Source: Bdellovibrionota bacterium (GTDB taxonomy: Bacteria > Bdellovibrionota_C > UBA2361 > JBGSMV01). Taken from it: a stretch of DNA of 47,690 nt. This document shows, in pieces, positions 2,397 to 37,117 of this stretch. Both the position numbers and the translations under genes were made by a program. Position 1 is the stretch's first letter; each line of letters begins with the position of its first letter. The DNA lies in NCBI GenBank assembly GCA_041739995.1, contig JBGSMV010000058.1, forward strand, positions 1 to 47,690. The letters are read 5' to 3'. Under the pieces are notes generated by a model. That model saw only the letters and a program-made list of their open reading frames with translations, was not told the DNA's origin and made no database searches.

Positions 2397-2438
2397 GGCA
2401 GCCGAAAGTTTAATCTGAATTTAAGTGAGCGTAGTGGC

Positions 2439-3071: not shown

Positions 3072-3096
3072 CGACGACGCCTAAGAGGAAATAGAA

Positions 3097-18128: not shown

Positions 18129-18205
18129 GGTGGCTGTAGCTCAGTTGGTAGAGCTCCGGATTGTGGTTCCGGAGGTCGCGGGTTCGAGCCCCGTCAGCCA
18201 CCCCA
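18129..18205 (+). tRNA. tRNA-His (GTG) with G-1 and encoded CCA
   Basis: Cloverleaf with gtggctg/cagccac acceptor stem, ccgga ttGTGgt tccgg anticodon arm and GGTTCGAG T-loop. Confidence 0.97.
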
Positions 18206-18306
18206 CCTTCGCGCTGCGCGCTTCGGCGGGGTAAACCCACTTCGCTTCGTGCAGCGCGAAGGTGGCTCCGACGAAGCCCTTCAGGGCGAAGTCGAGCGGG
18301 CAAGCC
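18198..18306 (+). repeat. 109-bp direct repeat copy 1 (tRNA 3' end plus REP-like hairpins)
   Basis: Identical to 21699-21807. Contains the IR ccaccttcgcgctgc (18203-18217) / gcagcgcgaaggtgg (18251-18265). Confidence 0.95.
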
Positions 18307-18371
18307 AATACCCATTCCAATTTTCAAGAAACTTTCTCTCAAAATCTCCGATTAATACATCGGAGATTCAA

Positions 18372-18611
18372 ATGCACATCGTCTACCTATTGCGCAGCCA
18401 GAAAAACCCAAATCGAGTTTATGTCGGTCTATGCGGCAACATGAAAAACCGCCTTGCCGAACATAACGCCGGAGAATGTAAAACGACCACAGAGGCTCGT
18501 CCATGGGCAGTAGATGTCGCCATCTATCTTCGCGATGAAAAGAAGGCACATGCCTTTGAGCGCTACCTAAAAACTGGATCTGGTAGAGCCTTTTCTAAAA
18601 AACATTTTTAG
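18372..18611 (+). CDS. Small GIY-YIG nuclease (79 aa)
   Basis: IVYLL..YVG..RLAEHNAG..T..RPW..FERYLKTGSGRAF; GGAG RBS. Confidence 0.88.
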   Translation: MHIVYLLRSQKNPNRVYVGLCGNMKNRLAEHNAGECKTTTEARPWAVDVAIYLRDEKKAHAFERYLKTGSGRAFSKKHF

Positions 18612-18674
18612 GACCGTCCTTACTTTTCTAACCGTCTGTAATCATTAGTTCGACCCATCCACCCGATTCTTTGT

Positions 18675-18723
18675 TTGACAACCAGCATTCGTATATATTA
18701 TACTTTCAATATATTCTGAAAGT
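18675..18723 (+). promoter_or_regulatory. Sigma70-type promoter with operator palindrome for the GbsR operon
   Basis: TTGACA at 18675, TATACT at 18699; IR ACTTTCA-N8-TGAAAGT at 18702-18723. Confidence 0.65.
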
Positions 18724-18736
18724 TCAGGAACTATAT

Positions 18737-19252
18737 ATGAAGCTCGAAGATGCGAAACAAAAATTCATCCAAATCTGGGGTACGGTCGGAGTCGAATGGG
18801 GCATAAACCGCACTATGGCACAGGTGCATGGTCTTCTTCTCACACGCGAAGAAGCCCTGTCTACGGAAGAAGTCATGGAAGCCTTAGGCGTTTCAAGGGG
18901 CAACGCGAACATGAATCTCCGCGAATTAGTGAACTGGGGACTCGTTTCTCGTGAGACCAAAGCCGGGGACCGAAAGGAGTACTTTATCGCAGAAAAGGAC
19001 ATTTGGGAGGTTGCTCAACGCATCGTCGCTGAACGAAGAAAGCGAGAACTCGATCCACTAATGAAAATGCTAGAGCAGCTTCAAAACGACACAACGATAG
19101 CTCAAGGACAGAACAAGGAAGCGCAATCTTTTAAGAAGCTGATCTCAGATATTCATACACTCGGAAAAAAGAGCAGCAATCTATTAGATCTTGTTTTAAG
19201 GCTTGATCAATCAACTTTTTTTAAACCGCTAATGTCGTTTCTGAAGAAGTAG
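18737..19252 (+). CDS. GbsR/MarR family transcriptional regulator
   Basis: FIQIWG..WGINRTMAQVHGLL, SRGNANMNLREL..WGLV, GDRKEYF. Confidence 0.88.
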   Translation: MKLEDAKQKFIQIWGTVGVEWGINRTMAQVHGLLLTREEALSTEEVMEALGVSRGNANMNLRELVNWGLVSRETKAGDRKEYFIAEKDIWEVAQRIVAERRKRELDPLMKMLEQLQNDTTIAQGQNKEAQSFKKLISDIHTLGKKSSNLLDLVLRLDQSTFFKPLMSFLKK

Positions 19253-19254
19253 CT

Positions 19255-19743
19255 ATGGCAACTATACAAATCACTACATTAATTCATGCTCCGATAGAGA
19301 GAGTATTTGACCTTTGTCGAAGTATTGATGCCCATCAACATTCGACAGCGACTACTTCTGAAGTAGCAGTGGGGGGAATAACAAGCGGATTGATTGGGCT
19401 AGGGGAAGAAGTTGAATGGGAAGCTTGTCATTTTGGAGTGAAGCAAAGACTTTCCGTCAAAATTTCAGCATTCAGCAGACCGAATCACTTTCAGGATGAG
19501 ATGATCAAAGGCGCATTCTCAACAATGAAGCACGACCACTATTTCAGAATGGTAGGTGATGACACCGAGGTAAAGGACGTATTCGAATATAAGGCTCCTC
19601 TTGGTGTGCTTGGTAGAATTGCGGAAAAACTATTTCTCACTCGGTATATGAGAACTTTTTTAATTAAAAGAAATCAGATCCTGAAGCATGTCGCTGAAAC
19701 TGATGAATGGAAAAAGTTTTTAAGTAGTAGTGAAGCTGTATGA
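19255..19743 (+). CDS. SRPBCC family protein
   Basis: IHAPIERVFDL..SIDAH, F.DEM..G.F..MKHDHYF. Confidence 0.85.
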   Translation: MATIQITTLIHAPIERVFDLCRSIDAHQHSTATTSEVAVGGITSGLIGLGEEVEWEACHFGVKQRLSVKISAFSRPNHFQDEMIKGAFSTMKHDHYFRMVGDDTEVKDVFEYKAPLGVLGRIAEKLFLTRYMRTFLIKRNQILKHVAETDEWKKFLSSSEAV

Positions 19744-20690
19744 AAATCGTAATACCAGGAGGCACAGGACAAGTCGGAACGGTTTTAGCTAGACACTTTC
19801 ATGCTGAAGGACATGAAGTAGTGGTAATCAGCAGAGGTGCAAAACCAGCACCATGGAAAGTCGTGAAATGGGATGGGCAGACTTTAGGTGCTTGGGTCAA
19901 TGAGCTTGAAGGTGCTGATGTGCTTATTAATCTCACAGGTCGTATCGTCAATTGTCGATATAACTACAAGAATCGATGTGAAATCTGGGCTTCACGCTCT
20001 CGCTCAGTGCGAATACTTGGAAAGGCTTTAGAAACACTCAAGCTTCCGCCGCGTGTTTGGCTTCAAGCTGGAACCGCAACGATATACGCCCACCGTTTTG
20101 ATGCACCCAATGATGAATCCACTGGCATTATAGGTGGAACCGAAGACAGTTCACCTGATAAGTGGCGTTTCAGTATTGATGTTGCCCGCGCCTGGGAGGG
20201 TGAATTTGCGCTCATTGAAGCTCCAAAAACCAGAAAGGTAATTCTGCGCTCTGCCATGACTATGAGTCATGATCGTGACGGTATTTTTGATTATCTTCTT
20301 TGGCTAGTGCGCGTGGGCATCGGGGGTGCAGCAGGATCAGGAAAACAATATATCTCATGGATACATTATCTTGATTTCATAAATGCCATACAGTTCATAA
20401 TTGACAATGAGCAAATTTCGGGCGCAATCAATCTTGCTTCTCCAAACCCATTACCAAATAAAGACTTTATGGGTCAGTTAAGAAAAGCTTGGGGACAAAA
20501 GCTCGCATTCCCAGTCTATCAATGGATGCTTGAAATCGGAGCAATCTTTCTTCGCACTGAAAGTGAATTGGTATTAAAGAGCAGGCGTGTCGTTCCTGGA
20601 CGCTTGATTAATGCTGGTTTTAAGTTTCAATACGGCGATTGGTCTTCTGCTTCAATAGATCTCTGCGAACGATGGAAAAAGCAGGGATGA
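19740..20690 (+). CDS. TIGR01777 family NAD-dependent epimerase/oxidoreductase
   Basis: MKIVIPGGTGQVG, INLTG, GSGKQYISWIH, VVPGRL..GFKFQY. Confidence 0.9.
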   Translation: MKIVIPGGTGQVGTVLARHFHAEGHEVVVISRGAKPAPWKVVKWDGQTLGAWVNELEGADVLINLTGRIVNCRYNYKNRCEIWASRSRSVRILGKALETLKLPPRVWLQAGTATIYAHRFDAPNDESTGIIGGTEDSSPDKWRFSIDVARAWEGEFALIEAPKTRKVILRSAMTMSHDRDGIFDYLLWLVRVGIGGAAGSGKQYISWIHYLDFINAIQFIIDNEQISGAINLASPNPLPNKDFMGQLRKAWGQKLAFPVYQWMLEIGAIFLRTESELVLKSRRVVPGRLINAGFKFQYGDWSSASIDLCERWKKQG

Positions 20691-20691
20691 T

Positions 20692-21168
20692 ATGTTGCGG
20701 TGGATGCTCACATTAAAAATACCCGCTTTGTTCGCATACCTTTGTTTTTGCGTTCTAATTTCAGCCTTTGCGCTCGGTTCATTTAGAAAGATTGTTCAGG
20801 AATATCTCAGTACTACTTACGACTACCGCACTGAGGGAATCCTGGTATTGGGGCAAGTGGCATTCCAGTGGTTGTTTATGGGCAAGGCATCTTGGTCTAA
20901 GCGAAAAGTATATGCGATTATCGCACTCACTGTTTCAATGATCGGCTCTTTATTGCTACTTCCGCTGATCGCTTACCAAAGTTTCTTCTCGATCTCTTCT
21001 GTCTGGGCGGCTGTTTACTTCTTTACTGTGGTGGGAGTAATTTTTGTAATTCACCACAGCCTAATAGTACGAAAGCAACTGCCAGCGATACTGACCTATA
21101 CCTGGGTGCTTTATCGTCTACTGCTTCTGATCTACTTGGTTTTTCCACGCCAAGGTCGTTATGGATAA
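20692..21168 (+). CDS. Hypothetical multi-pass membrane protein
   Basis: About five hydrophobic segments; tightly coupled to neighbouring genes. Confidence 0.75.
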   Translation: MLRWMLTLKIPALFAYLCFCVLISAFALGSFRKIVQEYLSTTYDYRTEGILVLGQVAFQWLFMGKASWSKRKVYAIIALTVSMIGSLLLLPLIAYQSFFSISSVWAAVYFFTVVGVIFVIHHSLIVRKQLPAILTYTWVLYRLLLLIYLVFPRQGRYG

Positions 21169-21568
21169 TCAACATGCGCAGCATAGGGTCGGCAAGTCGG
21201 GGTTAGTGATTTTTGATGGATCGTGTGGTGCATGTTCAGCTTTTATCGGCGGGAAAAAGGAGTTTTTTGAAAAATATGGGTTTTCGGTAGTACCGCTTCA
21301 GGAGCCCTGGGTGAAGGAAATTTCAAACTTAAATGAGGAAACTTTACTTCAAGCAATTCATCTTTACACACCAGAGGGTGAGATTGTTCGTGGAGCCGAC
21401 TTCTTTCAGCGAGTTGCTAGTAAAGTCTGGTGGCTGGCACCCGTTAATTTGCTCTTGCATGTTCCTATTCTGAAGCGCTTCTTTGCTGTTATTTATGATG
21501 AAGTAGCAAGGCGCAGACGGCTAATTTCTCGGCTCTGTGGATTACAATCAAGAGCGCTTTACAAGTAA
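21161..21568 (+). CDS. DCC1-like (DUF393) thiol-disulfide oxidoreductase
   Basis: VIFDGSCGAC (DxxCxxC), Y..VARRR. Confidence 0.85.
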   Translation: MDNQHAQHRVGKSGLVIFDGSCGACSAFIGGKKEFFEKYGFSVVPLQEPWVKEISNLNEETLLQAIHLYTPEGEIVRGADFFQRVASKVWWLAPVNLLLHVPILKRFFAVIYDEVARRRRLISRLCGLQSRALYK

Positions 21569-21599
21569 TTCGAAGCCAGTAGGGTAGCATTTCTCTAGC

Positions 21600-21706
21600 T
21601 TTCAGGAGCTTTCTAAATTACCCCAAAATTGGATGCAAAAAGAATGAACGATTTCATGAAGCCCAATAAAAATGCGGGTTTCAGCGGGTGCAGATGCACC
21701 ACCCCA
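21600..21706 (+). repeat. att-like site 1
   Basis: tttcaggagctttctaaatt..aaattggatgcaaaaagaatgaacgatttc..caataaaaatgcgggtttc..agatgcaCCACCCCA. Confidence 0.85.
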
Positions 21707-21807
21707 CCTTCGCGCTGCGCGCTTCGGCGGGGTAAACCCACTTCGCTTCGTGCAGCGCGAAGGTGGCTCCGACGAAGCCCTTCAGGGCGAAGTCGAGCGG
21801 GCAAGCC
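21699..21807 (+). repeat. 109-bp direct repeat copy 2
   Basis: Identical to 18198-18306. Confidence 0.95.
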
Positions 21808-22003
21808 CATCTCGCCAATCGAAAATGTTGTTTACTCAATAGGGCGAAGTTGGCTCCGACAGCTTGCTCCGCCGAAGCTTTAGCGAAGGCGAGAAGTCAG
21901 CTTTAGCTGACGAAGTCGAGCACGAATCAGCAATAATTCAATTTTAAACAGGAAACTTTTCCTCTGAATCTCCGATTAATTAATTGGAGATTCAAATGCA
22001 TTA

Positions 22004-22058
22004 TTCATTGAAACCCAATAAAAATGCGGGTTTCAGCGGGTGAAGATACACCACCCCA
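22004..22058 (+). repeat. att-like site 2 (5'-truncated)
   Basis: cccaataaaaatgcgggtttcagcgggtg is identical to site 1; ends in CCACCCCA at 22051-22058. Confidence 0.85.
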
Positions 22059-22068
22059 CAACACTTCT

Positions 22069-22106
22069 GACATTTCAAGAAACTTCTAATGATTTCTTGA
22101 AATGTC
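22069..22106. terminator. 14-bp inverted repeat just after the core and downstream of the Fic gene
   Basis: gacatttcaagaaa-N10-tttcttgaaatgtc; could be a terminator or a protein-binding site. Confidence 0.5.
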
Positions 22107-22119
22107 CTCCTTTACAAAC

Positions 22120-23034
22120 TCATTTTTTGAGACTGCTGAGATAGTCGGAGATCGATTTTTCTGTCGCCAACCAGTTGCGAGCCTTCTTGTGTGCGTCAAT
22201 TTTTCCTTGTCGGGCTAGCAAACTTAAATACTCCTGTGAGTAGGGAAATTTCTTGGCAAGAACAGATAACGGAACGTATTCGTTGTTTCCTAGTGCACCA
22301 CTACTCTCAAGATATAAATCCAGTGAACGTTCCAACGCCTGAGCAATGAGCAGGATGAAGTCTTTATACTCTCCTTTGTTTGCCTGGTTGAGTGAGCGAT
22401 AATACTGTTTTCTGTTGTTCTTCAAGATGATAGCTGGCGGGTAACCAAATTTCATAAATAGAAGATTCATCAATAATCGGGCAGTTCTCCCGTTCCCGTC
22501 GAAGAACGGATGTATCCAAACAAACCTATGATGAAATCTTGCTATAAGCTCAACATGATCAAGCTTATCAGGGTTCTTGTTCGTATAAGTTACCAGCTCC
22601 TTCATTAACGAACTTACCTTTACAAAATTAGGAGGAATGAAGTTCGCCCCAAGTATGCGAACCTGCCCGTTCCTATACCTGCCTGCAAACTCAGATTCTA
22701 TATTTTCTAGAACTAGCCTATGAACGCCAAAGATATCTTTCTCATTCAGAACGTATTTGGATCTAGCCAGTTCTTCGACAAAATAGATTGCCTTCTCATG
22801 GTTCTTTGCTTCAAAGTGTTCACGAAGATTTCTTCCCTTTATAGTGATGCCCTGCTCAAGAACTAATCTAGTTTCCTGCAAGGTGAGGGTGTTGCCTTCA
22901 ATAGCATTCGAATTATAGGTCCACTCGATAGCCAGCTCAGATTTAAGCCGTTTCAATGCGGCTTGGGGGAGTGGTCGCAGCTTTGCAAGCTGCTTTTTCT
23001 TAGTCTCTATTCTTTCAAGTATTTTTTGTGCCAT
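22120..23034 (-). CDS. Fic family protein with C-terminal HTH
   Basis: Canonical HPFFDGNGRTAR, N-terminal inhibitory SNAIEGN, C-terminal YSQEYLSLLARQGKI. Confidence 0.93.
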   Translation of the reverse strand: MAQKILERIETKKKQLAKLRPLPQAALKRLKSELAIEWTYNSNAIEGNTLTLQETRLVLEQGITIKGRNLREHFEAKNHEKAIYFVEELARSKYVLNEKDIFGVHRLVLENIESEFAGRYRNGQVRILGANFIPPNFVKVSSLMKELVTYTNKNPDKLDHVELIARFHHRFVWIHPFFDGNGRTARLLMNLLFMKFGYPPAIILKNNRKQYYRSLNQANKGEYKDFILLIAQALERSLDLYLESSGALGNNEYVPLSVLAKKFPYSQEYLSLLARQGKIDAHKKARNWLATEKSISDYLSSLKK

Positions 23035-23067
23035 ATCGGATAGGTTTAATATTATACCTATCCGATA
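23034..23067. promoter_or_regulatory. Perfect 12-bp inverted repeat at the Fic start (putative autoregulatory operator)
   Basis: tatcggataggt-N10-acctatccgata. Confidence 0.65.
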
Positions 23068-23090
23068 CTAATGGCAAGTCATCTATAAAT

Positions 23091-23192
23091 TAGGAGCTTT
23101 CAGAATTACCTGAAAATTGGGTGCAAAATGGATGCACGGTTTTATAAAACCAAAAAATCAAGGGTTTTAAGGTGCTCAGATACTCCACACCA
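23091..23192 (+). repeat. att-like site 3
   Basis: aggagctttc.gaattacc..aaaattgggtgcaaaatggatgcacg..aaaaaatcaagggtttt..cagatactCCACACCA. Confidence 0.8.
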
Positions 23193-23209
23193 TTACGAAA
23201 TTTTCGAAG

Positions 23210-24520
23210 TTAATGATGATGCTCGTGCTTTTGTATTGTGGGAGCGTCTTTACGTCCACTTTGTGTGATACCGAGATCCCTCTGGAGTTCAGCGTTTGTA
23301 GCTGAAATGGCAACGGTTCCCTCTGGGTTTTTATACCACCCCGGATCATTGTACGCAGTGATTCCCTCTCTGACTTTGAGCATGGTGAACATTCCACCCA
23401 TTTCAATGTAGCTGAAAGGTCCCGGTGCTCCGAGCATAGGAATACTATTTTTAGGTATGTCCATATGCTGCATGTGTTCTGGATGACCTCCCATCCCCGT
23501 TTCGCCCATCATCATGTAGTCGGGTAGTAACTTTTTTATCTTTGCATCAAGATCGCCTCGTTCGACCCCAATCATGTTCGGTAAGCCATGTCCCATCTGA
23601 TTCATAGTATGGTGAGTCATGTGACAATGAAGTGCCCAATCTCCCGGTTCATTCGCAACGAATTCAACCGATCTTGTAGTTCCGACTGGTGTTAAAACTG
23701 TAGTTTCTGGTTGCTGCGCTGATTCTGGAACTTGCCCGCCGTCTGTCTCAGTAATCTTGAATTGATATCCATGAAGGTGGATTGGGTGATGGCTCATCGC
23801 GCTCAAGTTCGCAACACGAATACGAACTCTATCGCCTAACTTGGCAACCAGCGGCTCAGTTGCAGGAAATGCTTTCCCGTTGAATGTAAGAAGATTGAAC
23901 TCAACCATCTCCATTGGGTCAGGGCGGCTAGTGCCAGGCTCGATCTTCCACTCGCCTAGCATTAAAGCAAAATCTCTATCGATTCTTGGTTCCTTACGTT
24001 CCTTAGGATGGATAATGAATATCCCAGTTGTACCTATTCCGACCTGAGTCATCTCGTCAAAATGCGAATGGTACATGTGAGTCCCGTGTTGCCGAAGAGT
24101 GAATTCATACTTGAACGTGTCGCCTGGTTCGATGGGACTTTGATTCAATCCGGAGACGCCATCCATACCGTTTGGTAGCAAGATGCCGTGCCAATGGACT
24201 GAGGTCGGCTCTGGCAGTTTGTTCGTGACATAGATTCTCACTCTGTCGCCTTCGACGACTTCTATGGTCGGACCAGGCAGATGTCCGTTATACCCCCATA
24301 CCTTTGCTTTGAGTCCCGGTGCGAACTCGTGCTCAAATTCCTCAGCCACAAGATGAAAAACCTTTGTACCATCTACCCTTCGCCAAGGTAATTTCGTGCC
24401 GTTTGGTACAACAACCGGCGTGTAACGGTCATCCTTGCCGTCAAATTTCACCTCGGCGCTTAAGGGAGATCCGAATAGAATGAGGAGTGCCGATATGAAA
24501 AGGAATGTTGCATGTTTCAT
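23210..24520 (-). CDS. Multicopper oxidase (copper resistance)
   Basis: HWHG, MYHSH, HPIHLHG, HCHMTHH; Met/His-rich tail; signal peptide. Confidence 0.93.
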   Translation of the reverse strand: MKHATFLFISALLILFGSPLSAEVKFDGKDDRYTPVVVPNGTKLPWRRVDGTKVFHLVAEEFEHEFAPGLKAKVWGYNGHLPGPTIEVVEGDRVRIYVTNKLPEPTSVHWHGILLPNGMDGVSGLNQSPIEPGDTFKYEFTLRQHGTHMYHSHFDEMTQVGIGTTGIFIIHPKERKEPRIDRDFALMLGEWKIEPGTSRPDPMEMVEFNLLTFNGKAFPATEPLVAKLGDRVRIRVANLSAMSHHPIHLHGYQFKITETDGGQVPESAQQPETTVLTPVGTTRSVEFVANEPGDWALHCHMTHHTMNQMGHGLPNMIGVERGDLDAKIKKLLPDYMMMGETGMGGHPEHMQHMDIPKNSIPMLGAPGPFSYIEMGGMFTMLKVREGITAYNDPGWYKNPEGTVAISATNAELQRDLGITQSGRKDAPTIQKHEHHH

Positions 24521-24522
24521 TA

Positions 24523-25884
24523 TTAAATTGCCTCCTGTTCTACTTCCGAAGGCATTATGCCATTGCGCATAGATTCAAGTTCGGTATGCAAAAGCCAGTA
24601 GCTCTTCAACGTAGAAATGTAGTCCTTGCCCGTTTCTATTTGTTTGTGTTTTGCCTCGAGGAGTTGGAACGCGCCCACCAGCATAGCGTTGTATTGTTTC
24701 TGCGTTTCCGAGACGAGCTTGGCTTGTAAGGGTAGTAAGTTTTTTTTATATCCGGTTAAACGAGACTCGACAAGTTTGACCCTTTTCAGAAGCGACCGTG
24801 TGCGGGCTTGAATCTTAGTCTGCAAATCAATCGCTAGATCGTATTGCTGTTGCAATGCTGCATTTGCCCGAAATATCTCTGTCTGACCTTGGCTAAAAAA
24901 TGGAAGCGGAAGACTGAAAGCCGGACCAAAGCCCCATTTGCCTTCACCTTCTTTTGCACCTGATACTCCGAGTTCTGAATCCCCAAATATTCTATATTGT
25001 TCTGCCGCATCTAAAGAACTCGATAGAGTGAGAAGTCTTTGTCGTGCTTTAGCTAGTGCAAGGTTGTTAGTGATAGCGTCTTTTTCGATCTGGTTAAATT
25101 GTTCGACCGAAGTCTTCACCTCAGGTAGGCGCTTATGAGCGTTCCAATTTGTCTGCTGAACTTCCAAGCCTAGAAGCGAATTTAGCTCCTCCCGTGCTGC
25201 CGCAAGCTCTTCCTCGTGGATAGTGATCTCAATCTTCAAAGATTCATAATTTGATTGCTCCTGTGCAAGATCCAGATCAGTTATGTTCCCAGCGTTATGA
25301 AGCCTAGTGGCTAAATCTTTTGAAGCCTCAAGAGCAATTAAGGCTGTCTTTGACATTTCAAGTAATTGCTCGGATGCCTGGTATTCAAAGAAAGCTCTTC
25401 TCACATTGTAAGCCAGAGACAATGCTTTCTCGACAACATCGAGCTTGGCTTCCTCGAACTCAGACTGTGCGATCTTTTCTCGGAGTGGAATTTCAAATAC
25501 CTTTATAAAGCTCTGGACGATTGACAGCTCTAAATTTGGTCCGTCACTCGGGAAGCGGATTTCGCCACTAAAAATCGGATTGGGGAAAAGACCAGCTTGC
25601 ACAAGATCAGCTTGCGCAATTCCTAGCTGCTGATAAGTGGCTTGCAGTCGTTTGTTGTTCAATAGAGCAATCTGAGTTGCGCTGTCCGCTGTAAGATCAT
25701 TTGAAAGCAGCTTCGCAATCTCTTGTTCAACTTTCTGGTCTTCTTCCGTTCCCGTTTTCCAATAGAGGTTTTGCCCAGTTCGGGAAGAAAACGTTTCGTT
25801 TACTTCATTAAAACCCAACTGATGTGTGAACGTGGCACAACCTGACAAGGTTAGAAGTAAGGTAATCGAAATGAATCGTCTCAT
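24523..25884 (-). CDS. TolC/CzcC-like outer membrane efflux lipoprotein
   Basis: Lipobox LSGC, ADLVQAGLFPNP, helical repeats, YNAMLVGAFQLL. Confidence 0.88.
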   Translation of the reverse strand: MRRFISITLLLTLSGCATFTHQLGFNEVNETFSSRTGQNLYWKTGTEEDQKVEQEIAKLLSNDLTADSATQIALLNNKRLQATYQQLGIAQADLVQAGLFPNPIFSGEIRFPSDGPNLELSIVQSFIKVFEIPLREKIAQSEFEEAKLDVVEKALSLAYNVRRAFFEYQASEQLLEMSKTALIALEASKDLATRLHNAGNITDLDLAQEQSNYESLKIEITIHEEELAAAREELNSLLGLEVQQTNWNAHKRLPEVKTSVEQFNQIEKDAITNNLALAKARQRLLTLSSSLDAAEQYRIFGDSELGVSGAKEGEGKWGFGPAFSLPLPFFSQGQTEIFRANAALQQQYDLAIDLQTKIQARTRSLLKRVKLVESRLTGYKKNLLPLQAKLVSETQKQYNAMLVGAFQLLEAKHKQIETGKDYISTLKSYWLLHTELESMRNGIMPSEVEQEAI

Positions 25885-26615
25885 GTTAAAAGCTGCATTT
25901 GATGAATAATCATTGTGAATGCCATTAGCCCCATCGTTACATCTTCGACCAAGGTTACTTTGGTCATGGGAAGTTTAAGTGCAGTGCCGAGACATGCACA
26001 TTGAAACTTTCGTTTCGTCTTTAGCGCCTGAAGCACACCGACTGAACCAACTGACATTAAAATTAACGTGGCAATGTTAGTTGTAAGTGGTGCGAATCCA
26101 ATGAAATAAGCAATTCCCAAGAGCAGTTCGATGAACGGGTAAGAAAGCCCATAGCGGCGGCTACGTGACGCAATAATGTCATATGTTGCGTAGGCATCAG
26201 CAAAACCAGAAAGATTTAGGAGTTTGAAGAGCGAGAAGACAACGAAGAAACCACCCATGAAGTTATTCATAAGTGAAGTGAAAGAATAGTCGTCGGCAAT
26301 CCAGGCACGAAGAAACACACCGCCAACTATGTATGACAATATCACGAAAAGTGGTGTTAACTTCTCATCGTTCGAATCACTTGGAATTTCAGTCGGCGAT
26401 CGGTGCGCTGACAGCTCCGATTTCCTAACTTTATATTCTCCTACTGTTGAGATAATTGCCTGTAGTGCGTCACTGGTAATTGAATTTGACACGAACTTCA
26501 CCCTAGGGGGTGAAAGTGTGACAGTCGCGTCAGAAAATCCTGCGGCTTTCAGCGCCTGATCTATCTTAGTGACGCAGCTACCGCACCTCATTCCTTCAAT
26601 ATTAAATTCACTCAT
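25881..26615 (-). CDS. HMA domain plus MauE/DoxX-like membrane protein
   Basis: EGMRCGSCV (GMxCxxC), FADAYATYDII, FQCACLG. Start MSEF at 26615 with GGAGAG RBS. Confidence 0.85.
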   Translation of the reverse strand: MSEFNIEGMRCGSCVTKIDQALKAAGFSDATVTLSPPRVKFVSNSITSDALQAIISTVGEYKVRKSELSAHRSPTEIPSDSNDEKLTPLFVILSYIVGGVFLRAWIADDYSFTSLMNNFMGGFFVVFSLFKLLNLSGFADAYATYDIIASRSRRYGLSYPFIELLLGIAYFIGFAPLTTNIATLILMSVGSVGVLQALKTKRKFQCACLGTALKLPMTKVTLVEDVTMGLMAFTMIIHQMQLLT

Positions 26616-26630
26616 AATAACTCTCCATAC

Positions 26631-26660
26631 TTGACACCATATACCCATGGGGGGTATAAT
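26631..26660 (+). promoter_or_regulatory. Consensus sigma70 promoter containing a CsoR-type operator
   Basis: TTGACA (26631)-N18-TATAAT (26655); ATACCC-ATGGG-GGGTAT C/G-tract palindrome at 26641-26657. Confidence 0.8.
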
Positions 26661-26701
26661 GCAATAGATAAAGTTGAACTTTTGGAAATTCAAGGTGGAA
26701 A

Positions 26702-27019
26702 ATGGCTAAGAACGAATTGGCGGCATGTTGTGGTGAATTGGCTTCAACACAATCGCATCCTGATCATTCAAAGGAGCTGCATAGAATTAACCGTATTTCG
26801 GGGCAGCTCGAAGGGGTAAAACGAATGATTTCAGAGCGTGAATACTGCCCCAAAATCATCACACAAATTCAGGCAGTGAGAGCTGCTTTGAAGTCTCTAG
26901 AGTCCGTAGTACTGGAGAAGCATTTAGCCATGTGCATTAAAGATGCTTTGGCTTCTAAGGACGAGAGGGAGGCGAACAGAAAGATGGAAGAGCTAATGGA
27001 GGTTTTCCGCCGAAGCTAA
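26702..27019 (+). CDS. csoR: CsoR/RcnR family metal-sensing repressor
   Basis: RINRISGQLEGVKRMI..YC..I.TQI.AV.AAL..HLAMC. Confidence 0.9.
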   Translation: MAKNELAACCGELASTQSHPDHSKELHRINRISGQLEGVKRMISEREYCPKIITQIQAVRAALKSLESVVLEKHLAMCIKDALASKDEREANRKMEELMEVFRRS

Positions 27020-27046
27020 CTATTCCAAAAATGTCTCTTGGTTGAA

Positions 27047-27152
27047 TTTCAGGAGCTTTCTAAATTCCCTCCAAATTGGATGCAAAAAGGATGCACGATT
27101 TCACGAAACTCAATAAAAACGGGGGTTCTGAGAGGTTCAGATACTCACCCCA
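27047..27152 (+). repeat. att-like site 4
   Basis: tttcaggagctttctaaatt..aaattggatgcaaaaaggatgcacgatttc..caataaaaacgggggttc..cagatactCACCCCA. Confidence 0.85.
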
Positions 27153-27330
27153 GTGTTATTCGTCCGCGGGGGCGTTTCGCCCACTTCGTTCGCTCAACGT
27201 AGCGTGGGCAGTATGGTGGCTGCGGGGAGCATAGTGAGCCTCGGGCCTTCGCGAAGCTGAGTGACTGGCGCCTCTGCTTAGATCTGAGTCCAGCAGGAGT
27301 CGCCAGTGCTGAGCACTCATATAATTGACT

Positions 27331-28140
27331 TCACTTCTCTCCGTAAACGGTGATGCTTGAGAGTGCAGCTCCTTGTTGAGTGAATGCGTCAATCTCTGAA
27401 GGTGAAAGATACTGAGACAATACGCCTGTCGGCAGAGTAATCGACTTTGAGATTTTCACCTCGATATTCTTGAAGCCTGAATCCTTGAGTAGTCCCAGAT
27501 ATTCGGTCCTTTCAATCGCACCTGACACGCAGCCGGCATACATTTCAGCAGCTTGCCTTATGCCCTCGGGCAACTGGCGTTCAAGCACAATATCGGAGAT
27601 TGAGAAATGCCCGCCAACGGCCAAGACCCGGTGCATCTCCTTGAATGCGAGCTTTTTGTCTGGAACCAAATTCAGAACGCAATTGCTGATTACTACGTCA
27701 ATCGAATCAGCATCAATCGGCATATCTTCAATATCACCGAGCTGAAACTCCACATTGGTGAAGCCTAGTTTTTTGGCATTCAGTCTAGCTTTCTCGATCA
27801 TTGGTTCTGTTATATCCAGACCGATTACTTTACCCGATTCTCCAACAATCGCCCTTGCTACAAAGGCATCGTTACCAGCGCCGGAACCAAGATCGAGCAC
27901 CATATCACCAGCTTTAATGCCAGCAACTTCGGTCGGCACACCACAGCCGAGTTTCAAATCAGCATCCCTGTTGTAACCTTTAAGTTGAGTATAGTCGTCG
28001 TTGAAGCAGGTCAAGTCATGTGGTTCACCGCCGCAACTTTGGGTTCCGCAACAGGTTGAGCTACCCAACTCCTCAAGAGACTTCGTTGCAATTTCGCCAT
28101 ATTTCTCTTTCACTATCGATTTTAGATTTTCATTTTCCAT
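27331..28140 (-). CDS. arsM: Arsenite methyltransferase
   Basis: VKEKYGEIA, CCG, LGCGVP, LDLGSGAGND, VVISNCVLNLVPDK, YAGCVSGA. Confidence 0.93.
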   Translation of the reverse strand: MENENLKSIVKEKYGEIATKSLEELGSSTCCGTQSCGGEPHDLTCFNDDYTQLKGYNRDADLKLGCGVPTEVAGIKAGDMVLDLGSGAGNDAFVARAIVGESGKVIGLDITEPMIEKARLNAKKLGFTNVEFQLGDIEDMPIDADSIDVVISNCVLNLVPDKKLAFKEMHRVLAVGGHFSISDIVLERQLPEGIRQAAEMYAGCVSGAIERTEYLGLLKDSGFKNIEVKISKSITLPTGVLSQYLSPSEIDAFTQQGAALSSITVYGEK

Positions 28141-28197
28141 AACGTCTCTTAGTCCTTCTATAAAAATAGGGCTTCATTCAAACGAACTAAGTGCAGC

Positions 28198-28542
28198 TCA
28201 GGACGGGCAACACTTCCTTGATTTAAGACTTTTCCCTAGCAGCTTGAATAAGTTGGTTGATAACTTCTGAAATTCATTAATTGCCTCAGCATCAAGGCAG
28301 TAACAGGACTTAAGCCCTTCAATTTCACCTGTGATGAGCCCCGCGTCCTTAAGCTCCTTCAAGTGTTGAGAAACTGTTGATTGAGCAAGCGGAAGCACTT
28401 CTACGATCTCACCACAGATGCAGCTTTCTTTCTTGGAGAGTGTTTCTAGAATGGCAAGACGCGCAGGATGAGACAGGGCTTTCGCGTACCGTGCTAAAGC
28501 GGTGAGGCGGGAGTCGAATTCGTTCTTCTTTGATTGTGCCAT
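28198..28542 (-). CDS. arsR: ArsR/SmtB family regulator
   Basis: KALSHPARL, CICGEIV, QSTVSQHLKELK, C-terminal CC. Confidence 0.92.
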   Translation of the reverse strand: MAQSKKNEFDSRLTALARYAKALSHPARLAILETLSKKESCICGEIVEVLPLAQSTVSQHLKELKDAGLITGEIEGLKSCYCLDAEAINEFQKLSTNLFKLLGKSLKSRKCCPS

Positions 28543-28549
28543 ATGCCCT

Positions 28550-28579
28550 GTATCGTATATCGTAAGTATACGATGATAC
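28550..28579. promoter_or_regulatory. Putative ArsR operator
   Basis: ATCGTA-agta-TACGAT palindrome just upstream of the arsR start. Confidence 0.55.
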
Positions 28580-28598
28580 CTCGGGGCAATTCAAGCTG

Positions 28599-28668
28599 TT
28601 TCTTGAAATTTCTAAGACTGGCCCCCCGTAGTCTTTACGAAGGCGGATTACTGCAAAATCTGGTGCAC
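28599..28668 (+). repeat. Degenerate att-like site 5 interrupted by a REP-like hairpin
   Basis: tttcttgaaatttctaa resembles tttcaggagctttctaa; tgcaaaatctggtgcac resembles tgcaaaatggatgcac; no CACCCCA core seen. Confidence 0.45.
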
Positions 28669-28758
28669 CGCGCTGCACACACTGCACAAGTGTGCTGGGA
28701 GTAAATAGTTAATGGCCTCGAGACTTGATCGCGCAGGTGCGGTTAGGGCACCCTAAAA

Positions 28759-29246
28759 TCATTCAGGGGTTGCGGTGCCCCACATTCTGACGGCCGCAAA
28801 GAGCAGGTCCCCGATTGTCATGGCGAGGAGAAGGAGCGCCCAGGAGGCCATGAATGTGGTAATTCGAATTATGCCCGGCGACTCTGGGTCGTATGCGATA
28901 GGAACTTGATCTCCCCGATCAAAGGTAAACTGGGCGAAGCGGTATCCAGATTGGACAGTATGGCGATTTCCATTTGTGTCTGTGAACCACAGTGTGGGCA
29001 AGTACGTTGTTGAGGGGCTCTCTTCCTCATGGATTGAATCTGAGACGGTTTGACGGAGAGAATTTCTGCTTCTGTAGAGTTCCACGTTCGCACTAGCTCG
29101 TACTGATAGCAGCACCACGCGAACCCAATCAGAAAAATGGCCGCAGTAGCGTAGGTCAGTCGTAAATTTTTCGACGAATTCGGTCCGATTTTCGCTGTTC
29201 TTCGAGCGAGAGGATCTTCATGAGGTAGAAGGCGCCCTTTAGACAA
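28759..29246 (-). pseudogene. Frameshifted DUF3592-like membrane protein
   Basis: N-terminal TM plus W.STEAEI in one frame; Y.P...FTD..G..H, GDQVPIAYDPESP and a TM in another. Shift near 29030-29055. Confidence 0.6.
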
Positions 29247-29427
29247 TCAAGCAGGGGAGGATTATCCAAGTGGGAGTGGGCGCTTCGCACCCATTGTATC
29301 TGGCCGTTACGCGTAACGCATCCTGGAACATCCACCCGTGCCTATGATAGCCTGTCGCGCGCGACAACATTACCTAAAGATTGAAAAGATGCTCATTCTA
29401 TTCCCAAGTTTTGCCGGCAGACCAATT

Positions 29428-30699
29428 ATGAAACGATTGCGGTTTCTCTATCATAGATTGACTGAGCGGCTCTGGATCAAGCCGCTCATTATTTGTTTTT
29501 TCTCTGTAGTAATAGTCTTTCTTGCTAAGCTCGCCGATCGAAGCAGCATGCTGACGGAGATCTTTCCAGAGGTGACTCTAGAGTCAATCGAGACACTTCT
29601 AAATATTTTAAGTTCGAGCATGTTGGTAATCGCGACCTTTGCTGTTGCGTCTATGGTTTCGGCTTACGCTTCGGCAAGCAGCACAGCGACGCCACGATCG
29701 TTCTCGCTTGTCATCTCCGACGATGTTTCACAGAACGCACTTTCTACTTTCATCGGAGCATTTATCTTCAGCATAGTGGCGTTGATCGTCGCGAAGAATG
29801 AATACTACGGTAAAGCAGGGCTGCTTGGTCTTTTTGTACTCACCATCATTGTATTTGCGCTCGTCATTTATACTTTCGTGCGTTGGGTTGATCGAATCGC
29901 TCGCCTTGGTCGGCTTGGTGCCACGATCGACAAGGTAGAGGCGGCCACGAAAAGCGCATTGCTAAATCGTAAGAACGCTCCGCGCCTTGGAGGTAGTCCG
30001 GTTGAATCTCGCCGAATAAAGGATGCCCGGCCGATTTATAGCGATAGGGTGGGCTACGTGCAGCAAGTAAATGTGGATACCTTGCAAGAGATAGCCCAAA
30101 GCTACGAGACACGGATCGTGGTTTTTGCGCTTCCTGGCGCCTTTGTCACACCAAATTCGCCCTTAGCCTACATTGAGCCGAACCCTGACTTTGAAAAGAA
30201 GATTGAGCTAGAGCAATTGATAAAGGCGTTTGTCGTTGGCGATGATAGGAAGTTTGATGAAGATCCTCGCTTCGGTTTGATAGTTCTCTCGGAAATCGCT
30301 GGTCGTGCTTTGTCTCCGGCGGTGAATGACCCCGGCACTGCCATAGACATTATTGGAACCTTTGTAAGGCTTTTTTCGATTTGGGGTGAGCCTCTGACGG
30401 AGGCGCAAGAAGAGAAGATTGAATTTGATCGAGTTGCGGTTCCTGAAATTTCGATTGACGACATGTTTGATGATGCCTTTACCGCAATAGCCCGAGACGG
30501 TGCGGGTTCTATTGAAGTTATAATGAGACTGCAGAAGGCTTTCATCGCTCTCGCATCTATGGATAGTTCTGAAATGAAATCAGCTGCAGAGCGCCACTCA
30601 CGATTAAGTCTCGCAAGAGCTGAAAAGAGAATGGACCTTTCCGACGATTTGGAGATAGTACAAACCTTATCGGAATCCCTCTGCAGGTCTAAGGCTTGA
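29428..30699 (+). CDS. DUF2254 family membrane protein
   Basis: ASSTATPR, QNALSTFIGAF, DPRFGLIVLSEIAGRALSPAVNDPGTA. Confidence 0.88.
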   Translation: MKRLRFLYHRLTERLWIKPLIICFFSVVIVFLAKLADRSSMLTEIFPEVTLESIETLLNILSSSMLVIATFAVASMVSAYASASSTATPRSFSLVISDDVSQNALSTFIGAFIFSIVALIVAKNEYYGKAGLLGLFVLTIIVFALVIYTFVRWVDRIARLGRLGATIDKVEAATKSALLNRKNAPRLGGSPVESRRIKDARPIYSDRVGYVQQVNVDTLQEIAQSYETRIVVFALPGAFVTPNSPLAYIEPNPDFEKKIELEQLIKAFVVGDDRKFDEDPRFGLIVLSEIAGRALSPAVNDPGTAIDIIGTFVRLFSIWGEPLTEAQEEKIEFDRVAVPEISIDDMFDDAFTAIARDGAGSIEVIMRLQKAFIALASMDSSEMKSAAERHSRLSLARAEKRMDLSDDLEIVQTLSESLCRSKA

Positions 30700-30874
30700 G
30701 AATCTGTTCGTCTGAAATGTGGAAAGCGCTCGGTAGCGTCGCCTAGGCTTCTACCCCTCAGAGGAAGAAGCCACAAACCAGAATTAGGTGGCTATTATCG
30801 CTACCAGTGACTAGGCTCTCTCCGACATAGAGACATGCGTTAAATTGGTAGTCACCATATAGGGAGTCTCCGCA

Positions 30875-31132
30875 ATGACAGCCGATCTTCAATCTTTACT
30901 TATGACCTTACTGATTGGTGGTGTGGCAGGCTGGCTTGCTGGCACACTAATGCGTGGCGGAGGATTCGGTATTGTCGGCGATATCGTTGTCGGAATTGTG
31001 GGTGCTTTTGTAGGTGCCTGGATTTTTGGAATGCTCGGAATTGCTTGGGGTGGAATGCTGGGTGCAATCGTCTGTGCGACAGTCGGCGCCATGGTATTAA
31101 TATTCCTCATTCGTCTTATCAAGCGGGCGTAA
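30875..31132 (+). CDS. GlsB/YeaQ/YmgE family (transglycosylase-associated) membrane protein
   Basis: IGGVAGWLAG..MRGGGFG..GDIVVGIVGAFVG. Confidence 0.92.
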   Translation: MTADLQSLLMTLLIGGVAGWLAGTLMRGGGFGIVGDIVVGIVGAFVGAWIFGMLGIAWGGMLGAIVCATVGAMVLIFLIRLIKRA

Positions 31133-31166
31133 AAGAGTACCTGTCCTGCCCGCTCTATCTCTTCCC

Positions 31167-31490
31167 TTAGCCCGGCTGCCCGTCAATTCGCGGGCGAACA
31201 AGCACGCTGAAGTAGGCTAGAAGAAACAGGCTGAATGCAGCTATCCACAGTGCTTGAGAGAGTGCGACCCAAAGTAAGTATTGTTGCGGGGCAAACAAGG
31301 GAAATCCAACGCGGACAACGAAGCCAAGTACCATTGCACATAAAGCAAAAGTAGTGAGCTTCGGCGGATTCCTAATATTTCGCCCTGAATGACCAAGCGA
31401 CACTCGAGACATCATGCCAATTGTCGCCAGTCCGACTCCGCCAACTGCAAAGGCATGAACTGCAAGAAACGGTGAAGCGAGAGAGAGCGC
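31167..31490 (-). pseudogene. nnrS: C-terminal fragment of NnrS
   Basis: HAFAVGG..GMMSRVSLGHSGR..RPRIDGQPG; the N-terminal majority of the protein is absent. Confidence 0.75.
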
Positions 31491-31713
31491 ACTAGGACCA
31501 CAAAGAATTAGTCTTTCAGAATCCTCTAGACATTTAAGCTCTAATTTTGAGGAAAGTTTCTCTCTGTGAAGTATGCCTAGCGTCGCTACGCAAACCTCGT
31601 TTCTCGCATAACGAAATACCATTATTTTCTTTGTGTTTTCATGATTTTAGCTAGCGAAGCTTGCTCTCACGTTTGATAGTGACGAGGTTCTCCATGGTTA
31701 ATGGAGTAGTGAA

Positions 31714-33150
31714 TTGCAGGAGTCTCTCACACCATCTCAGCAGCGTTTCGTTACGCTCCTTGGAACCTCGTGGTTTCCACCCCACCCAGAGATTCTTGCT
31801 CGGGTGCAAGCGCGTGTTCGGGATGAGCGCGCTATACTGGATCGCGACGCGCTAGAGCGCGAGTTGCAAGGCGATCCGAGTTTGTATTTGCGTACCGTTC
31901 GCGAGCTTACTACGCGCGTGCTCCGTGAGGGCGAGAGTGCTGCGGGTGGAGAGGACGTGCCGCCAGTGCGCCACCGCCTTCATCCGTCGCAGCTAATTCG
32001 CAATGCTTCGGTTCGGGCGCTACGCGAAGTACTCGATGTATCCGCAGATAATTGTTCAGCAGTACCTTTCCACGGTGGATCAGAGTGGGCCGCGAAAAGA
32101 ACCGCCCAGGCGCTTTTCGGGGGAGTTGTCGTTGATGCTCTGGCAGCATCTAAGGTGGCGGGTACGGGGCTTGGCTTCGCCTCAGGGGTTTTTCGGCAGT
32201 TGGGAATGCTGTTAATCGTTTGGCATCACCCGCACGTATACAGTCGCCTCGTCGAATCATTGCCCGTAGGACAGTCGCTTGATGAGGCCTTGGCGCGGGT
32301 ACTTGGCATGTCACCTGCCTCCCTAGGGTTAGTGCTTGCGAGAGAGTGGCGTATCAGTCCGGAGATTCGCTCAGCAATGGGAGATCCCCTCGAAGGCGAG
32401 GAAGAAACGGCACAGGCAGTGGGGGGTCATTTGCGGGGGCTGTGCGAGCTTGGAGAGTCGCTTGCGACAAGCCGATTTCTTAAGGCATCAAGTGCAGGAC
32501 TTATAGAGTATCAGGAGGCCTCTAGTCGCGCTCAGTTAATTCTGGGGAATGACGGTCTTCGGGCCATCTTCGCTCAAGTAGACCGCGCATGTGAACATCT
32601 GATGCGCTCCTTTCCTTCGGCATTTCCGGCGGAAGGCCCCCAAAGACAGCGGCCTGAACCAAAGCCATTTTCCACCAAGCTTCCGCCTTTCGTAATTGAG
32701 CAATTGCAGTTTCTTCGCGATAACTTCTCCGGTGGCGTTGCACCCGAACGATTGCGAAGCGTTGTGGAGCAAGTGGTGAGGTCGCTCGGCTTTGTCAGTG
32801 GCAGACTCTATGTCTTTGATCCCGGAGATCAGCGACTCATTCCACGCGTGGCGTGGGGCGCGGCGGAGTTGAAGTCTATTCGCTCTATCAATCTTGGCCC
32901 TGAAGAGGCGCAATCAAAAAAAACGCACACAACGGAACAAGACCAAGTGGTTCGAGATGCATTTGGCTCTCGAGAACCGAAGGTTAACGGGCGTGCTATT
33001 GCGGTACTGGCCGTGCCGATTGGAATCGACAATACGATTGGCGTGCTGGCGTTGGAGATGAAGCGAGAGTTCTTCGAGCCGCGGACAGAGCTTGTTCAAG
33101 ACTGTGCGGTGGCCCTCGGTGCAGCGATCTCAGAGGCGATCGATCTTTAA
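31714..33150 (+). CDS. HDOD domain protein with C-terminal GAF-like region
   Basis: LERELQGDPSL..R, GVFRQLGMLLI, LAREWRISPEI; C-terminal LAVPIG..IGVLALE. Confidence 0.7.
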   Translation: MQESLTPSQQRFVTLLGTSWFPPHPEILARVQARVRDERAILDRDALERELQGDPSLYLRTVRELTTRVLREGESAAGGEDVPPVRHRLHPSQLIRNASVRALREVLDVSADNCSAVPFHGGSEWAAKRTAQALFGGVVVDALAASKVAGTGLGFASGVFRQLGMLLIVWHHPHVYSRLVESLPVGQSLDEALARVLGMSPASLGLVLAREWRISPEIRSAMGDPLEGEEETAQAVGGHLRGLCELGESLATSRFLKASSAGLIEYQEASSRAQLILGNDGLRAIFAQVDRACEHLMRSFPSAFPAEGPQRQRPEPKPFSTKLPPFVIEQLQFLRDNFSGGVAPERLRSVVEQVVRSLGFVSGRLYVFDPGDQRLIPRVAWGAAELKSIRSINLGPEEAQSKKTHTTEQDQVVRDAFGSREPKVNGRAIAVLAVPIGIDNTIGVLALEMKREFFEPRTELVQDCAVALGAAISEAIDL

Positions 33151-33259
33151 CCGCGAAGAATATAGAGAGCAGGTAGCGAGATGATGTCTCCACCCGCCGC
33201 GAGCGGCTCTCTTTATTAAAGAGAGCGCTTCTCAGCGACGAGCGGAGACAAGGGGATGG

Positions 33260-35776: not shown

Positions 35777-36125
35777 TTTAACTCCCCAAATTATGCACTC
35801 TAGGGACGAGCGCGTTTCAGATTGGTTATTTCAAAACAGTTACTTCAGAACTTTCTTTTTAAAACAGGGCTTCTCTACAGAGCTTCCCTACGTGGCGCGA
35901 TATGCCATCTCCATAGGTCAGATTTGAATGGAGTGACCCGTTCAAATGACCAGATTTTCCGAATAGCCCATATGAATCGCTCGTTTTTGATCGATTGTAG
36001 GGGCTCATTCAACGAAGAAAGCGCTACACACGTTGCGAATGACCCCCTTTAGTAGCTAAATCAGACGATTTGGTAAAGAACTCTGGGTCCTTAGAGGATT
36101 GTTTTCGTAGGGAGCGAGCAGGCAG

Positions 36126-36968: not shown

Positions 36969-37041
36969 CAGGTTTTGGCAGGCGGGCCCCCCGAGTTGAA
37001 TAACATTCCGTTAGAAGCTACTCTCCCGGTTCTTCTGTGGC

Positions 37042-37117
<76 letters not shown>

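Follow-up and report, generated by a model that had tools for sequence, protein, structure and literature searches.

An array of integrase-less cassettes behind tRNA-His in a Bdellovibrionota bacterium, read as a composite genomic island of a tRNA-targeting tyrosine integrase family

Behind the tRNA-His gene of Bdellovibrionota bacterium GCA_041739995.1 lies a row of small gene modules separated by conserved blocks, each of which ends in a copy of the tRNA 3' end. The stretch analysed here, referred to as the window, is the whole of contig JBGSMV010000058.1 (47,690 nt). Several described systems resemble this array in part. Integrons string together small cassettes that each end in a recombination site, in an order that is shuffled between genomes. 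The staphylococcal cassette chromosome (SCC) and pseudo-SCC elements at staphylococcal rlmH target a protein gene, depend on serine recombinases (Ccr) and have no repeats other than short ones. Cis-mobilisable elements (CIMEs) have lost their integration and transfer genes while keeping attL and attR, and they accrete and are mobilised with an integrase-bearing neighbour (PMC5704250). At ssrA in Dehalococcoides, 16 of 31 islands carry an integration module, whose history disagrees with that of the cargo, and strain diversity is driven by these islands (PMC3146451). The small microcin H47 island of E. coli has extensive imperfect direct repeats and no recombinase, and it excises and integrates via functions supplied in trans (PMC3191183). 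Prochlorococcus tycheposons are tyrosine-recombinase elements at tRNA genes with integrase and replication modules (bioRxiv 10.1101/2020.12.28.424599).

The array is best read as an instance of a known mode of genomic-island formation, namely CIME-type accretion of elements that belong to a tRNA-targeting tyrosine integrase. On the whole, we consider it fairly probable that the array is a composite tRNA-His island: its blocks would be attR-type arms, its units CIME-like cassettes without an integrase that travelled as passengers in cis, and the array would now be stranded in its host. An earlier note, made from the letters of the window, had likewise taken the blocks for att-like sites of a tRNA-targeting tyrosine integrase, and had the cassettes inserted serially and singly by a recombinase acting in trans, in a manner functionally like an integron. 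The kind of system to which the array is assigned here, tandem accretion as in CIME families, had already been named in that note.

The intact tRNA-His gene (GTG; 18130-18205, + strand; Rfam 67.9 bits) ends in the 8 nt CCACCCCA (18198-18205), which form the core common to every block. Six copies of CCACCCCA occur in the window against 0.72 expected, a number that none of 100 shuffles reached. Three of them lie on the + strand, at 18198, 21699 and 22051, and variants of the core stand at 23185-23192 (CCACACCA) and 27146-27152 (CACCCCA). A repeat search recovered four homologous copies of 105 nt, at 21600, 21952, 23088 and 27047, each preceding a post-tRNA core. A profile built from 25 block copies was run over the source genome, a 91%-complete metagenome-assembled genome (MAG) of 3.8 Mb in 81 contigs, G000 in our labelling, of which the window is contig C48. 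Its four matches all lie at this locus, and the next-best match has E = 0.19. The recurrence of the tRNA end at 21699, 22051, 23185 and 27146, as well as the homologous block before each copy with only the 3' half kept at 22004, had been described correctly in the earlier note.

All four blocks read on the + strand. Block b1, arm plus core, occupies 21600-21706 (E = 8e-32), b3 with the core variant CCACACCA occupies 23088-23192 (E = 2.6e-27), and b4 with the core CACCCCA occupies 27041-27152 (E = 1.9e-31). Block b2 (21949-22058; E = 1.1e-15) is a hybrid whose halves join at a common ATGCA. Its 3' half with the core (22004-22058) is 93% identical to b1 over 55 nt, and its 5' half (21949-22000) is a copy, 85% identical, of segment B, the leader of a GIY-YIG gene near the tRNA (18325-18376, + strand). 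Segment B holds TTTCAAGAAAC, a palindrome and ATGCAC, and a similar leader precedes GIY-YIG homologues elsewhere. Core to core, the modules measure 3501, 352, 1134 and 3960 nt, in agreement with the sizes first estimated, and the 352-nt module that b2 closes is empty.

Two details of the first description change. The repeat at the tRNA end does contain the 8-nt core, but it is 112 nt long rather than 8, since 18198-18309 and 21699-21810 are 99% identical and match exactly for about 110 nt. This repeat includes a GC-rich leader, A, which lies directly 3' of the tRNA core (18206-18309, + strand) and again at 21707-21810, where the repeat search placed a diverged partial duplicate, A', behind it (21811-21948, completing 21707-21948 on the + strand). 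The two copies of A are exact over 101 nt, and A occurs nowhere else in the genome. Secondly, a decayed fifth block had been proposed at 28599-28668 on the + strand, closing a fifth module, and this finds no statistical support. Over 27153-33000 the best profile match is 22 nt long (E = 0.9, 1.5 bits), and in local alignment against five blocks the observed score was reached by 14-15 of 300 shuffles for three blocks and by 250-256 of 300 for the other two. The position is a plausible one, as arsR directly precedes a block in two other loci (L031 and L133; L numbers denote fetched loci or contigs and G numbers genomes, L031 belonging to G012), and the module in question, the arsenic module, has no confirmed closing block.

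An alignment of 29 block copies from many genomes gives a constant order of parts. The block opens with ATTTCAGGAGCTTTCAAAATT, containing two TTTCA words, and continues with TTGGATGCAAAAAGGATGCAC, which amounts to two GGATGCA words 11 nt apart from start to start. Next comes a variable stretch, usually with AAACCC-N11-GGGTTT, and finally a nearly invariant 16-nt CAGATACTCCACCCCA end. This end and the block motifs are kept at 90% or more across the 29 copies, which come from many families. In the source genome the GGATGCA-N4-GGATGCA pair occurs once, in b4. ATTTCARGA is found six times in the window against 1.18 expected, with four of the six inside the array, while the single hexamer GRTGCA, with 55 copies in the window where 51 are expected, shows no enrichment, and specificity resides only in the spaced pair.

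The identity of these blocks becomes apparent in relatives. At L035, a 357-aa tyrosine integrase (2187-3260; PF00589 and PF22022) sits next to tRNA-His, with a small HTH gene (1953-2144) upstream of it, at the head of a 16.5-kb island that also carries type I restriction-modification and Mrr genes. Close homologues of this integrase, 72-100% identical, occur in 7 of 61 related genomes, and in all seven the gene lies 1.1-1.3 kb downstream of tRNA-His. The far end of the island is a block plus core in all three cases with the right end fetched (L035 17366-17476, L065 19741-19854 and L032 8831-8942). These islands measure 13.9-16.5 kb, as against 174-4656 nt for the integrase-less units from core to core in the fetched loci. 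At the opposite end, the integrase-side arm is conserved in eight loci and carries ATTTCAGGAAATTTCAG-N4-TTGGATGCAAAAAGGATGCA, the module of the block's 5' half. It thus has both the block's TTTCAGGA and its paired GGATGCA module, to which it adds two further GATGCA pairs and an inverted copy. Of 29 loci sampled across the order, 7 have this arm directly 3' of tRNA-His; in all eight integrase-bearing loci the island arm abuts the tRNA, and cassettes, if there are any, lie beyond the island.

Because the islands end in the same block and the integrase-side arm carries block motifs, the blocks are best read as attR-type sites, that is, the integrase-distal arm plus core of this integrase family, whose integrase would bind the shared motifs. 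Sequence comparison establishes that the sites are homologous and that integrase and site go together in relatives, and in this respect the earlier assignment to a tRNA-targeting tyrosine integrase is borne out. The recombinase flanked by the same arm, which that note had suggested looking for, exists in relatives and was not found at home. A tblastn search (E <= 1e-3) of the 91%-complete source assembly found no homologue of the integrase, and no integrase-side arm was found there either; the genome's four PF00589 matches all lie on contigs other than C48. Since no cognate integrase was found in the genome, its array would at present be stranded. On the contig itself, none of the 43 open reading frames (ORFs) scanned falls in a recombinase, transposase, relaxase or replication family, just as had been noted at the outset, and transfer (conjugation) families are likewise missing from the 43.

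Cassettes and integrase islands appear to have separate cargo. The two share no DNA in the cargo compared, so direct descent of the cassettes from the known islands is without support, although an origin of the modules in some integrase-bearing ancestor would fit the arms that they carry. The family integrase scores 53.8 bits against a XerA/integron-integrase model with a cut-off of 220, and the viral contigs searched hold neither a full block nor a relative of the integrase. A GGRTGCA-N4-GGRTGCA pair does lie some 40-300 nt upstream of genes for 444-aa tyrosine integrases, 22-25% identical to the family integrase, on viral and metagenome contigs (L142 162-180 and L143 551-569; also L112, L118, L122, L124 and L131). 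These pair-bearing integrases probably belong to one additional family of elements.

The blocks themselves recur in the order and keep to one arrangement. Copies 73-89% identical occur in 12 of the 61 related genomes at E <= 1e-3 and, at E <= 1e-6, in 13 of the 91 searched from the order, with three genomes (L148, L167 and L168) added by the profile alone. Full blocks on public contigs come under the titles Bdellovibrionota and Bdellovibrionales, and in one case Deltaproteobacteria (UBA2409); 12 of 31 metagenome pattern matches are true blocks. Within each of 14 loci, without exception, the blocks share a strand, and they are co-oriented with tRNA-His in the 8 of 8 that hold the tRNA, and in 13 related loci direct repeats of the tRNA end bound elements in the same way. 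A profile search of genome and relatives, as the earlier note had advised, therefore yields a single locus at home and arrays behind tRNA-His in relatives.

Some observations from these loci stand apart. One metagenome pattern match (L136, 21-2075) is a chance hit in a contig with 17 tRNA genes in 2 kb, unrelated to the array. Some 130 nt past the tRNA-His of G012, a second, 20-nt copy of the tRNA-His 3' end (GAGCCCCATTAGCCACCCCA; L031, about 240-265) exceeds the 8-nt block core in length and may be the scar of a different type of element. In G016, the module after a block (L017, 1624-2211) holds an ORF for a class-A-like beta-lactamase (Pfam Beta-lactamase2, E = 1e-16) that runs off the end of the fetched stretch.

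Two cassettes of the window illustrate how this DNA moves. The Fic cassette (22059-23087, - strand) has a ATTTCAAGA-motif palindrome at its left end (22069-22106) and a Fic/DOC gene (22120-23034, -). The copper cassette (23193-27040, - strand) carries genes for a multicopper oxidase (23210-24520, -), a TolC-like OEP protein (24523-25884, -), an HMA-MauE protein (25881-26693, -) and a CsoR-type repressor (26702-27019, +). Over 3852 nt the copper cassette is 87.9% identical to L031, which is from another family. Six genomes of five families have copies of the Fic cassette at 73-88% identity, and it occurs in two metagenome contigs as well. At the protein level the shared cassettes are 84-92% identical, with 87-92% for the copper proteins against L031. 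The 18-kb left flank, by comparison, gives best pieces of 64-72% against cassette-sharing genomes and no match in G007, and dprA gives no DNA-level alignment even within the genus, its product being 46% identical.

The order of cassettes changes too. It runs Fic-copper-arsenic in the window, AbiE-Fic-GNAT-arsenic-copper in L031, and copper-block-core-Fic-block in metagenome contig L121. In L079, L137 and L121 the match to the window's Fic cassette sets in at the core; copper-cassette homology begins 6 nt past the core and ends at the first block bases. Moreover, left ends of the Fic and copper types lie directly 3' of the tRNA core in other genomes (L150, L145 and L162). Read from sequence, these comparisons demonstrate horizontal exchange of cassettes and their reordering at cores. 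The locus comparison that had been proposed thus found a permuted order with breaks at the cores and not one invariant block. Nor did the modules prove to be deletion remnants of large known integrase-bearing ICEs or prophages, an outcome that would have told against the earlier proposal: the cassettes are integrase-less and are shared between families. As a separate observation, the G012 copper cassette has no closing block, its homology stopping in the first block bases (AATTT; L031, 10800-10815).

The outer modules behave differently. Module 1 opens with the leader and the gene for a 79-aa GIY-YIG protein (18372-18611, + strand; PF01541, E = 2.5e-11) and continues at 18671-21568 (+) with a MarR-type regulator, a 162-aa ORF, a DUF1731 epimerase, a membrane ORF and a DCC1-like oxidoreductase. 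The arsenic module (27153-28542, - strand) consists of a GC-rich leader (27153-27330), an ArsM-like methyltransferase gene (27331-28140, -) and arsR (28198-28542, -). Module 1 is syntenic with L041, which is contig C94 of G019, and there its genes and the arsenic genes are syntenic (44-78% aa identity) with no block between them; DNA identity of both, 69-73%, does not exceed the level seen for conserved flank genes. By sequence identity, the stretch from b1 to b4, comprising the empty module and the Fic and copper cassettes, is alone demonstrably recent, with the look of DNA inserted at the b1 core.

GIY-YIG homologues stand 130-850 nt downstream of tRNA-His, behind a GC-rich stretch, in 9 of 29 loci of the order, and six of these nine belong to genomes without blocks. 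The modules had been described as holding unrelated cargo, which is too simple for module 1 with its leader and gene so common after tRNA-His. Blocks lie to the right of GIY-YIG in the window, G007, L140 and G015, and the cargo between GIY-YIG and the first block differs. Module 1 may be a GIY-type element with captured flank, or resident DNA. A second core after GIY-YIG was considered as the true entry site and rejected: the window has CCACCCGA 40 nt past the stop, and the other eight GIY-YIG loci have no comparable site. A second GIY-YIG homologue (40% aa identity) lies elsewhere in the source genome, about 250 nt after the tmRNA gene (G000:C41:46578-46754, -); small GIY-YIG genes thus adjoin integration hot spots there, at both tRNA-His and tmRNA.

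GC-rich, partly palindromic segments (GCGAAG...CTTCGC, AGCTTTAGCGAAGG) are found directly 3' of many cores, in cassettes that are otherwise AT-rich. Examples are 18206-18309, 21707-21948 and 27153-27330 in the window, 6890-6960 in L031, and segments in L038, L032, L035 and L036. In a genome-wide search, leader A and the GC-rich motifs did not behave as dispersed repeats of the source genome. The segments may be relics of the tRNA-downstream sequence of former hosts.

How might such an array be built? We propose site-specific recombination, with a family of tRNA-His-specific tyrosine integrases that circulates in the order as the agent. A block would consist of a TTTCAGGA-type motif, one GGATGCA pair, the variable stretch, CAGATACT, and a 7-8-nt crossover core derived from the tRNA; the modules would be non-autonomous cassettes that keep this arm without an integrase, entering and leaving by recombination between cores. 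An integrase island would first dock at the tRNA core, next to the tRNA. Recombination of the tRNA core with any downstream block core would then release a circle of island plus cassettes. After transfer, the island alone would excise precisely at its own block, and the cassettes would stay behind in the new host. In essence, the cassettes would hitch-hike in cis, a route that we infer from the arrangement of the loci.

Several points weigh against this scheme. A close integrase is missing from 9 of the 12 block-bearing genomes of the 61-genome set, including the single-contig G042, and the arrays may be largely inert; at the same time, the source genome might have an integrase on DNA left unassembled in its 91%-complete MAG. 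Some cassettes (Fic in L031 and L034) start about 10 nt from the core with no recognisable integrase-side arm. Blocks and cargo track each other only loosely; for example, b3 stands to the right of Fic, yet its nearest counterpart in L031 is the block on the left side of Fic. GIY-YIG and its leader neighbour tRNA-His even in the six block-free genomes, and simple insertion at the tRNA core fails to explain blocks to the right of the GIY-YIG module. Assembly could play a part here, as the exact repeat of about 110 nt around A is about as long as an assembler word, the adjoining B copies being 85% identical, and the placement of module 1 could be a loop or path in the assembly graph. Finally, excision, integration and binding of the integrase to its motifs are all predictions from sequence.

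The strongest rival is an integron-like platform on which each cassette is an excisable circle of block, core and cargo, inserted singly in trans at tRNA-His or at a resident core. This is possible, though we regard it as doubtful. It accounts well for small units, 174-4656 nt against islands of 13.9-16.5 kb, that recur with new neighbours and in permuted order, and for arrays that far outnumber integrases. Fic- and copper-type left ends that abut the tRNA core (L150, L145 and L162) would suit it too, and inverted TTTCAGGA-type motifs at some left ends (22069-22106 in the window; L121) could be a minimal second arm. Yet in all eight integrase-bearing loci the island arm abuts the tRNA with no cassette in between, several cassettes lack a left-side arm, the single-cassette circles are predicted rather than seen, and separate composite deliveries or block-block recombination would explain the permutations equally well. 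Hitch-hiking in cis with an integrase island fits the data at least as well as the serial insertion of single cassettes first put forward, and the functional likeness to an integron did not hold, all three integron features tested having failed. An unlikely extension is a 'split integron', in which a chromosomal tRNA-His platform would collect small defence, toxin-antitoxin and metal-resistance cassettes singly through an integrase that resides on a separate, transient island, each cassette contributing an arm of about 107 bp and a core derived from the tRNA. The platform of such a system might include the small GIY-YIG gene found at the head of many arrays.

Rather improbable, in our estimate, is that the arrays are inert fossils, decayed remnants of many integrase islands whose sharing and reordering came about by homologous recombination between blocks about 80% identical after DNA uptake. 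Decay is certainly visible, in the lost fifth block, the missing copper block of L031 and empty modules of 174-352 nt, and a close integrase is wanting in 9 of 12 block-bearing genomes. The hybrid b2 and the exact 110-nt repeat resemble products of homology, and block subtypes do not keep to their cargo. However, across many families 29 copies preserve the motifs and the CAGATACTCCACCCCA end at 90% or more, as though selection were still acting; none of the cassette cargo matches that of the integrase islands; and one and the same integrase-less unit spans several families at 73-88% identity. That the block is a functional RNA or a terminator or promoter unit with a tRNA-like ending by chance is highly improbable, for although most copies have the AAACCC-N11-GGGTTT inverted repeat plus T residues, the Rfam scan matched the tRNA alone and none of the blocks, RNAalifold on the 29 blocks gave no consensus structure (3 pairs, -0.52 kcal/mol), the hairpin is conserved in sequence almost without compensatory change, and block motifs recur in integrase-side arms while blocks occur only behind tRNA-His and co-oriented with it.

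The left flank of tRNA-His is syntenic among relatives, and dprA is the upstream neighbour in the three loci with the upstream ORF scanned (the window, L036 and L039). In several families the interval from tRNA-His to tRNA-Lys is variable and the outer sides are syntenic in both directions. This interval is 19 kb in the window (18205-37042), 32 kb in G042 (C1, 1473498-1505447) and 28 kb in G049 (C81, 19356-47772). At 31167-31622 (- strand) of the window, a 151-aa ORF matches only the last 107 of 371 positions of the NnrS model; it is a truncated gene, and the low-GC DNA around it (27-31 kb) separates the array from the right flank, which is conserved. Logan contigs from four runs of one study cover the stretch at a depth of about 3-5 with no joints listed, and they are uninformative on excision. 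One of them (X2, record 9) starts with 14 unmatched letters before 18198 and could be a b1-core-A-B junction. A contig from run X1 matches the window identically over b1, A, A' and b2 and then departs from it at 21 positions within 22195-22326, inside the Fic gene's 3' end, pointing to a second strain alongside that has a different Fic allele.

Set beside the known systems, the array is most like CIMEs and the tandem accretion of the ICESt1 family. It is bounded by repeats of the target's 3' end and stacked at one such end, and its arms have homologues in an integrase-bearing element of the same target, in the absence of integration and transfer genes. It differs in that no cognate integrase was found in the same genome, which is 91% complete. 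Its cassettes (about 1-4 kb) are also much smaller than the CIMEs described and numerous, with the same integrase-less units spread over several families; the arm is a conserved block of about 107 nt, the host is a member of Bdellovibrionota, and mobilisation is here a prediction. Like the Dehalococcoides islands, the array has many units at one small-RNA-gene target, many without an integration module, but there the target is tmRNA (PMC3146451), whereas here it is tRNA-His and the units carry a conserved 107-nt arm. With the H47 island (PMC3191183) it shares small units that have no recombinase of their own, whereas H47 is described as a single, experimentally proven island with crossovers in several identity segments of long repeats (PMC3191183). 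Tycheposons (bioRxiv 10.1101/2020.12.28.424599) likewise form rows split by partial tRNA copies, with remnants and with defence, nutrient and metal-stress cargo; the window modules differ in having neither integrase nor replication module and in keeping a long conserved arm.

The likeness to integrons, and to clusters of attC sites lacking integron-integrases (CALINs), lies in small, site-closed cassettes of shuffled order. It goes no further, as there is no integrase on the contig and no IntI, attI or Pc promoter, the blocks are direct repeats without the fold of attC, genes lie on both strands with regulators of their own (CsoR, ArsR and MarR), and the core is a tRNA 3' end. SCC and pseudo-SCC elements are similar in that recombinase-less cassettes stack at the 3' end of one gene, with direct repeats and the recombinases of neighbours. 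Among the papers listed in searches on Bdellovibrio islands and integrases and on tandem islands at tRNA-His, no description of this array came up. What is particular here is that small integrase-less units predominate, cross families and keep a long conserved arm, and that a phylum which has received little study now has an identified integrase, core and set of candidate arm motifs.

For Bdellovibrionota, a predatory phylum whose mobile elements have been little studied, these loci offer a concrete case of recombination by which genes could spread horizontally, complete with natural substrates. Across genomes, the cassettes hold toxin-antitoxin or defence genes (Fic/DOC, AbiE and BrnT/BrnA) as well as copper and arsenic resistance, a record of the genes that these bacteria exchange. 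That integrase-less units with a long conserved arm dominate bears on the general question of whether decayed islets flanked by att sites are dead remnants or parasitic, cassette-like mobile DNA. Were the split integron to prove true, cassettes would circulate across families independently of a vehicle of their own.

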